From: a virus
Lineage: Duplodnaviria; Heunggongvirae; Uroviricota; Caudoviricetes
Reading direction: 5' to 3' (one strand)
Virus record (IMG/VR): IMGVR_UViG_2740892273_000009
DNA length: 4,082 nt
A program made the translations under genes and the position numbers. Positions 1 through 543 of the stretch are shown here, one piece after another (position 1 is the first letter of the stretch; every line of letters starts with the position of its first letter). The notes beneath the pieces are model-generated. The model saw only the letters and a program-made list of their open reading frames with translations, was not told the origin of the DNA and made no database searches.

Positions 1-99
1 CTGGCACGGCTGGGACGGAAGTCGCTGTCGTTCTCAAAATCGGTGGAGCTGCATGACAAAGTCATCGGGCATTATCTGAACATAAAACACTATCAATAA
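1..99 (+). CDS. insB: IS1 InsB (transposase C-terminal part), 5'-partial: last 32 codons plus TAA stop at 97-99
   Basis: Direct translation of 1-96 gives [32 protein letters not shown], recognised as the InsB C-terminus. The ORF is open to the window edge. Confidence 0.8.
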
Positions 100-114
100 G
101 TTGGAGTCATTACC
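1..114 (+). mobile_element. IS1 insertion sequence, 3'-terminal 114 bp (right end, terminal inverted repeat at about 92-114); the rest of the element lies left of the window
   Basis: Bases 1-114 match my recollection of the last 114 bp of IS1, ending ...CAATAAGTTGGAGTCATTACC. Frame 1 translates to [36 protein letters not shown], the InsB C-terminus. The block is the exact reverse complement of 3969-4082 and identity stops abruptly at 114/115. Confidence 0.85.
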
Positions 115-543
115 TGCGCCCCCCTGTGGAATGTAGTAATAACGTTCCATAACGCGGGCACGCCATATTTCCAGATTTTCAATATCTTCACCGTCTGTAA
201 TGGTGTCAGCGTACCCTGTGGACGGCAGACCACTGACGGGTGTTCCCAGTTGCATGGCAATACCATCATCCGTATTCCCCGCCGATCCCGGTTCGTCTGC
301 CACAACAGGCACCCGGAGAAGACCATCGGCTGCGGTCACCGTCGCCGTCGTGGTAAAGGTCACCTGATTATCACGCTGGATCTGCGTTCCCGCTGGCAAT
401 ACCGGCGTCCCCTCTACGCCATCCCAGCGCACAAATCCCCGGGCTGCCACCGCTTCTTTTCGCGGGCAGCGTTTGATTCTGGCGTGCCGGTACAGCCAGT
501 CTTCATCACACACGTCCGGTAACCACGGGTCGCCCGTTAACAT
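34..543 (-). pseudogene. Baseplate wedge protein gene at the Mu gp46/gp47 position (motifs reminiscent of the baseplate J family), interrupted by IS1. Native codons are 115-543 (about 143 codons); 34-114 is read-through into IS1 antisense sequence
   Basis: ATG at 541-543 lies 15 nt after the spike gene stop, same strand, in operon position. The frame stays open to the IS1 junction at 114/115, then runs 26 codons into IS1 ([25 protein letters not shown]) before TGA at 34-36. Native part contains PVLPAGT...VPVVADEPGSAGN...ITDGEDIENLEIWRARV...GG, which resembles J-like baseplate proteins from memory. Family assignment is tentative. Confidence 0.55.

Follow-up and report, generated by a model that had tools for sequence, protein, structure and literature searches.

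The 169-amino-acid (aa) open reading frame (ORF) near one end of this Shigella sonnei sequence appears to be a pseudogene shaped by two separate lesions: an IS1 insertion into a gp47/J-type baseplate wedge gene and, in this strain, a 561-bp deletion that joined a few out-of-frame codons of gp46 to the interior of gp47. The window, by which we mean the whole stretch of 4,082 bp that was analysed, was found by exact-protein look-up to be identical to the entire contig CWVW01000232.1 of a draft S. sonnei assembly (GCA_001261435.1). It is very likely a segment of a dead phiP27-like prophage, with a Mu-type tail, lying between two oppositely oriented and independently inserted copies of IS1. IS1 repeats occupy both contig ends, which are therefore sites where the short-read assembly broke, and the native genes between the two IS1 arms are all on the minus strand. 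The window was compared with an intact, nearly identical prophage (99.6-100% identity) in Escherichia coli FDAARGOS_944 (L001), with the locus in the complete S. sonnei genome CP010829.1 (L012), which was read directly, and with the gene tables of 10 complete-genome S. sonnei loci (L003-L012) retrieved through the exact gp45 protein. The features of the window are as follows.

1..114, plus strand: IS1 right end (IRR, insB-proximal) with the insB C-terminus; the contig stops within the repeat; matches the L012 IS1 at 11537-12304
34..543, minus strand: 169-aa chimeric ORF as called, with 7 out-of-frame gp46-derived codons, gp47 codons 63-198, 26 IS1 antisense codons and a stop
115..123: inner 9-bp target duplication of the first IS1, TGCGCCCCC (reverse complement GGGGGCGCA)
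115..523, minus strand: internal gp47/J fragment, codons 63-198 of 360, 100% identical to L001 8001-8410; Baseplate_J
506..553, minus strand: gp46 remnant, ATG ATG and 10 native codons and then out-of-frame gp47, reading MMINVNGRPVVTGRV and a stop
523..524: junction of the 561-bp deletion relative to intact relatives, from the split BLAST alignment
559..1092, minus strand: baseplate spike gene (Mu gp45 or phiP27 L50 type), 177 aa, intact; Phage_Mu_Gp45
1070..2152, minus strand: baseplate hub gene of the Mu gp44/gpP type, 360 aa, C-terminal tail frameshifted; Pfam domains
2149..3540, minus strand: Mu gp43-type "DNA circularization" or tube initiator gene, 463 aa; DNA_circ_N
3587..3968, minus strand: 3' 126 codons of a 160-aa low-GC gene, probably a moron; PHROG 5586; the first 34 codons lost to the second IS1
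3960..3968: inner 9-bp target duplication of the second IS1, GTTTTAACG (reverse complement CGTTAAAAC)
3969..4082, minus strand: IRR (right) end of the second IS1, in the opposite orientation to the first; the contig stops within the repeat

A reading frame with three origins

The ORF begins with an ATG at 543 and ends within IS1. Translation and comparison of the repeats place the boundary between IS1 and native sequence at 114/115, and positions 34-114 provide 26 sense codons and a stop that are antisense to insB, just as a first-pass annotation made from the letters alone had proposed. The same annotation counted 143 native codons; the length holds, since positions 115-543 comprise 429 nt, but only residues 8-143 are native gp47 sequence, being identical at 136 of 136 positions to residues 63-198 of the intact homologue. 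Residues 1-7 (MLTGDPW) are without a counterpart in gp47 and correspond to the start region of gp46, ATGATGATTAATGTTAACGGGCGACCCGTG, read in the +1 frame. In agreement with this division, the PHROG baseplate profiles align from ORF residue 8 only, with PHROG 2103 entering at profile position 60 and positions 1-59 missing. The start of the ORF had been taken for a native N-terminus, a view that overlooked the deletion junction at 523/524 inside the ORF. The native start of gp46, an ATG at 553, lies 10 nt upstream of the ATG at 543 and now begins a frame of only 15 codons. On these alignments, the ORF is a three-part chimera whose ATG at 543 differs from the native start of gp47 and is presumably fortuitous.

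Residues 14-143 of the ORF match the Pfam family Baseplate_J (PF04865) with an E value of 1e-24 and a score of 87.6 bits against a cut-off of 21.1, and the ORF also matches PHROG 6, "baseplate wedge subunit" (E=4e-34). These matches bear out the earlier suggestion that a J/gp47-type wedge gene has been cut by IS1. The Pfam match covers only profile positions 2-134 of 255, i.e., the first half, whereas the full-length homologue covers positions 2-255. As the match stops at profile position 134, the ORF is a truncated J/gp47-type gene and not the complete small protein that had been put forward as the alternative for residues 1-143. It is, as far as profile and homologue comparisons indicate, a gene fragment that has neither the full-length domain nor the native N-terminal region. 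Any product made from it would lack both the N-terminal and the C-terminal parts of J, and we infer that the ORF is not a functional gene but a pseudogene lacking expression and function.

That a gene caller would nevertheless report this ORF as intact had been foreseen, and the ORF has indeed been deposited, as CSH79705.1 and CSI25898.1, under the name "head assembly protein [Shigella sonnei]." This label is a misannotation of a baseplate wedge gene fragment, and the case illustrates for annotation how an apparently intact deposited ORF may be built of three unrelated reading contexts. A related observation concerns PHROG 27209 ("unknown function," 83 positions), which matches ORF residues 142-169 (window 34-120, minus strand; E=1e-16). 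As this match is to the IS1-antisense read-through tail, the family itself appears to have been built from IS1 junction artefacts.

The 561-bp deletion

A BLAST comparison of the window with the intact E. coli prophage splits into two alignments, window 114-523 with L001 8001-8410 and window 524-3968 with L001 8972-12411, and 561 bp are absent from the window. In L001, these 561 bp hold codons 11-137 of the 137-aa gp46 gene (PF07409, E=2e-33) together with the first 62 codons of a 360-aa gene of the "baseplate J/gp47 family." The window has thus kept 10 codons of gp46, and there is no gp46-like ORF between 543 and 559. At the junction, CCCGTG is followed directly by GTTACCGG, with which the retained gp47 side begins, while the deleted segment begins TCGACCGG.

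We propose that the locus acquired its present form through two lesions. An IS1 element would have inserted after codon 198 of the 360-codon gp47/J gene, an event that is common to all of the S. sonnei loci examined and that leaves the upstream part of gp47 reading 26 codons into IS1 antisense sequence; comparison with the intact prophage L001 places the insertion at this codon. The 561-bp deletion would be a separate lesion, confined to this strain, that took nearly all of gp46 (the wedge or sheath-initiator gene) and gp47 codons 1-62. By chance, it brought an ATG near the 5' end of gp46, out of frame in that gene, into the reading frame of gp47 at codon 63, leaving the native gp46 start to open a dead-end frame just upstream. 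We regard this two-lesion explanation, with a pseudogene as the outcome and no inversion, as highly probable on the sequence comparisons made here.

The cause of the deletion was also considered. In comparisons with L001 and L012, no microhomology was found at the breakpoint, the only shared sequence being ACCGG, 3 nt from each breakpoint, and slippage between direct repeats is accordingly unsupported. An IS1-mediated adjacent deletion was rejected because the deletion stops 409 bp short of IS1 instead of abutting it. The loss is best described as illegitimate recombination.

It is conceivable, but unlikely, that the deletion is an artefact of assembly and that the true state of this strain is an intact gp46 followed by a 224-aa gp47-IS1 chimeric ORF. 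The source is a short-read draft assembly, and the exact 169-aa ORF occurs in two contigs only, CWVW01000232.1 and that of one further sample, as against 4255 collection blocks in which the flanking gp45 protein is indexed. However, there is no exact repeat at the junction as long as a k-mer, on which an assembly graph might have collapsed, the contig is free of Ns and the same contig, identical in sequence, is recorded for two samples. These observations argue for a genuine deletion. The exact deletion junction gave no matches among the GTDB species-representative genomes, and 100-nt probes over the IS1/gp47, deletion and second IS1 junctions found no contiguous match in 5,426 complete E. coli genomes; all three lesions therefore lie outside this E. 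coli collection. The deletion could mark a small sublineage of S. sonnei, for which the 32-mer AACGGGCGACCCGTGGTTACCGGACGTGTGTG may be used in screening.

Two IS1 insertions and the remainder of gp47

Positions 1-114 and 3969-4082 of the window form a perfect 114-nt inverted repeat around a segment of 3854 bp. The insB C-terminus, ending in HYLNIKHYQ and a stop, is encoded on the plus strand at 1-99, and thousands of E. coli matches to the IS1 arms are annotated as IS1A or IS1B transposase. The window holds 114 nt of each IS1 and the inner half of each target duplication. Its IS1 ends are identical to the L012 copy at 6357-7124 and have one silent A/G difference from the gp47-adjacent copy.

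The first-pass annotation had placed the missing 3' part of the wedge gene beyond one of the two IS1 copies, with its position as an indication of whether an inversion had occurred. In the complete S. sonnei genomes, this part is found directly behind the adjacent IS1. Both IS1 copies are 768 bp long in these genomes, carry InsA/DDE_Tnp_IS1 genes and occupy the same sites as in the window, each with its own 9-bp duplication. The first IS1 of L012 (11537-12304) has GGGGGCGCA on both sides (11528-11536 and 12305-12313), and gp47 runs up to CCACAGGGGGGCGCA, is interrupted by the 768 bp of IS1 and continues with GGGGGCGCAGACCCTGATTATGTT, resuming in frame as GGADPDYVIWAKE. The piece downstream of this IS1 corresponds to Baseplate_J profile positions 132-255. 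The second IS1 (6357-7124) has CGTTAAAAC on both sides and cuts the 160-aa gene between the tape measure and gp43-like genes. Both IS1 junction sequences of L012 are those of the window, and the genes follow one another colinearly in each of the 10 complete S. sonnei loci.

A composite transposon or an inversion cassette, with the 3' part of gp47 behind the far IS1, would be in line with the perfect inverted IS1 ends around the 3854-bp segment, and inverted repeats can recombine homologously so as to invert what lies between them. Such a history is nonetheless very improbable, as each IS1 of L012 has kept its own matching duplication (GGGGGCGCA and CGTTAAAAC, respectively), indicating no later exchange, and in 10 of 10 complete-genome loci the interrupted genes resume colinearly on the outer sides of the two elements. 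By the separate matching duplications and the colinear order, the two elements are independent, simple IS1 insertions, without inversion or composite transposition in the complete S. sonnei genomes. The contig of the window itself stops within IS1; for this strain, the location of the gp47 3' part and the direction in which the segment lies are taken from these other S. sonnei genomes and are presumably the same.

Gene order, decay of the prophage and comparison with known systems

The lack of a gp46 gene between spike and J had initially been viewed as a departure from the Mu 45-46-47 order. This view does not stand. A gp46 gene separates spike from J in the intact E. coli prophage, in phiP27 (L51) and in 10 of 10 complete S. 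sonnei loci, and the order spike (gp45)-gp46-gp47-gp48 is found in every relative examined. The other members of the 90% cluster of the ORF are mostly partial S. sonnei proteins at contig ends, and all those inspected begin with the native MADSQFYRPG. Since gp46 is kept in all relatives and the 169-aa ORF is known from only two contigs, its absence would reflect a rare, secondary and strain-specific deletion and not a different architecture, the lineage itself being canonical. A Mu-like module without a separate gp46/W gene, in which the native N-terminus of a J-like gene directly follows the spike, might seem to account for the missing ORF at 543-559 and for a Baseplate_J match that begins close to the ORF N-terminus (residue 14), but it is extremely improbable, as the 100% identical L001 DNA continues upstream into 62 gp47 codons and a 137-aa GP46 gene, phiP27 and the complete S. 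sonnei genomes have the same upstream gp47 and gp46, and neither the first seven ORF residues nor the missing start of the PHROG 2103 profile fits with a native beginning. Hence, where a short draft contig seems to depart from a canonical gene order, the reason can be a deletion in that strain, and intact relatives should be consulted.

The spike protein matches Phage_Mu_Gp45 (PF06890, E=2e-26), differs from that of L001 by 2 aa and is identical to gp45 in L012, while the gp43-type protein matches DNA_circ_N (PF07157, E=3e-36) with 1 aa difference from L001. The hub protein matches the Pfam families GpP-like_1st, Gp44-like_2nd and GpP_4th. Two variations were observed in the hub gene. A homopolymer run at window 1111-1117 has seven A residues instead of eight, one base shorter than in phiP27 and L001, and the hub frameshift replaces the last 6 residues, NVEEDF and a stop, with MLRRISDERVFSS and a stop, overlapping the spike gene. 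At approximately 1588-1605, there is one extra copy of a 6-bp GCTGGT (Val-Leu) repeat relative to phiP27 and E. coli. Across the complete S. sonnei genomes, the length of the hub protein varies from 350 to 362 aa.

The gene interrupted by the second IS1 has a GC content of 37% in its remnant versus 54.5% across the remaining native segment. It encodes 160 aa, is located between the tape measure and gp43-like genes in E. coli and Shigella prophages (L001 12030-12512) and is absent from phiP27; it is therefore probably a moron. Its product has no Pfam family match but matches PHROG 5586 (unknown function), and its N-terminus, VIKPFLMTVAILTSCC, resembles a lipoprotein signal. The 131-aa ORF called for the remnant starts at a TTG inside IS1. 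Directly after this gene, at window 3559-3581 on the minus strand, there is a strong hairpin resembling an intrinsic terminator, AAGCCGCCAGAAATTGGCGGTTT, with a T-run; it lies about 20 bp upstream of the gp43-like start, at a place where the late tail operon of phiP27 runs on without interruption.

In the complete S. sonnei genomes (L003-L012, approximately 300-1900 and 16800-18100), the prophage remnant adjoins smpB (ssrA region) and is further broken by IS3- and IS4-family elements, with IS4-family copies flanking the region. Most of the head genes are gone; what is left of the head module is a fragment of Peptidase_S78 (prohead protease), next to which come an IS3-family element and, after it, the sheath gene. 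In L004, an integrase and other genes replace smpB downstream, a sign of additional rearrangement. The intact E. coli prophage has a frameshifted ipaH effector gene beyond its tail fibre genes. The first-pass annotation regarded the tail module as almost certainly non-functional, and the loss of gp46 together with the fragmentation of gp47 by IS1 points the same way. Because gp46 is missing, gp47 is split by IS1, the hub tail is frameshifted and, in the complete genomes, most head genes are gone, the tail module of this strain presumably cannot build a tail. We attach almost no probability to the idea that the J-core fragment (gp47 63-198 plus the IS1-encoded tail), translated from the ATG at 543, acts as a dominant-negative wedge subunit that disturbs the assembly of baseplates by incoming phiP27-like, SfV-like or Mu-like myophages; if this were so, it would amount to an accidental superinfection defence kept in a S. 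sonnei sublineage.

In phage Mu, the baseplate proteins include a tube initiator, a hub, a spike and the wedge proteins BW1-3, and each wedge is built as a heterotetramer from one copy of gp46 (BW1), two of gp47 (BW2) and one of gp48 (BW3), with gp46 initiating the sheath (PMC11915804). The window and its relatives together have the families of Mu gp43-gp48 in the same order, i.e., DNA_circ_N, the GpP/gp44 domains, Phage_Mu_Gp45, GP46, Baseplate_J and Phage_Mu_Gp48. However, only the tail module is Mu-like. The head genes of L001 (major capsid, head-tail connector and head closure) are not those of Mu; the head module appears to be HK97-like, and the element is therefore probably not a transposable phage.

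The closest described phage is the functional, Stx2e-converting phiP27 (NC_003356.1), which has 96.5% nucleotide identity to window 115-3968 over 89% of its length. The gene order is the same: genes L48-L53 of phiP27 encode the DNA circularization, hub, spike, gp46-like (L51, 137 aa), J-like (L52, 360 aa) and gp48-like proteins. This phage differs in being intact, without IS1, without the 561-bp deletion and lacking, between its tape measure gene and L48, the 160-aa low-GC gene; its hub protein has 351 aa and an unshifted C-terminus. Regions of phiP27-like prophage in S. sonnei have already been listed in genome papers (PMC5447701, PMC6128377); for this specific locus, the literature found consists only of generic PHAST/PHASTER mentions of phiP27-like regions in S. 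sonnei. The complete S. sonnei genome CP010829.1 shares with the window both IS1 positions, identical junctions and an identical gp45, but it has kept gp46 (136 aa; start at L012 10540) and the native gp47 N-terminus, such that its chimeric ORF has 224 aa (198 native and 26 IS1 codons).

Disruption of genes by IS1 is a hallmark of genome decay in Shigella. The locus described here is nothing new in kind; it is an ordinary pseudogene from genome decay and one more case of IS-driven prophage decay in this genus. With other Shigella IS1 pseudogenes, it shares the 768-bp IS1, the 9-bp duplication, a cut coding sequence and a read-through chimeric ORF, its only additional feature being an unrelated deletion at a distance of 409 bp from IS1.
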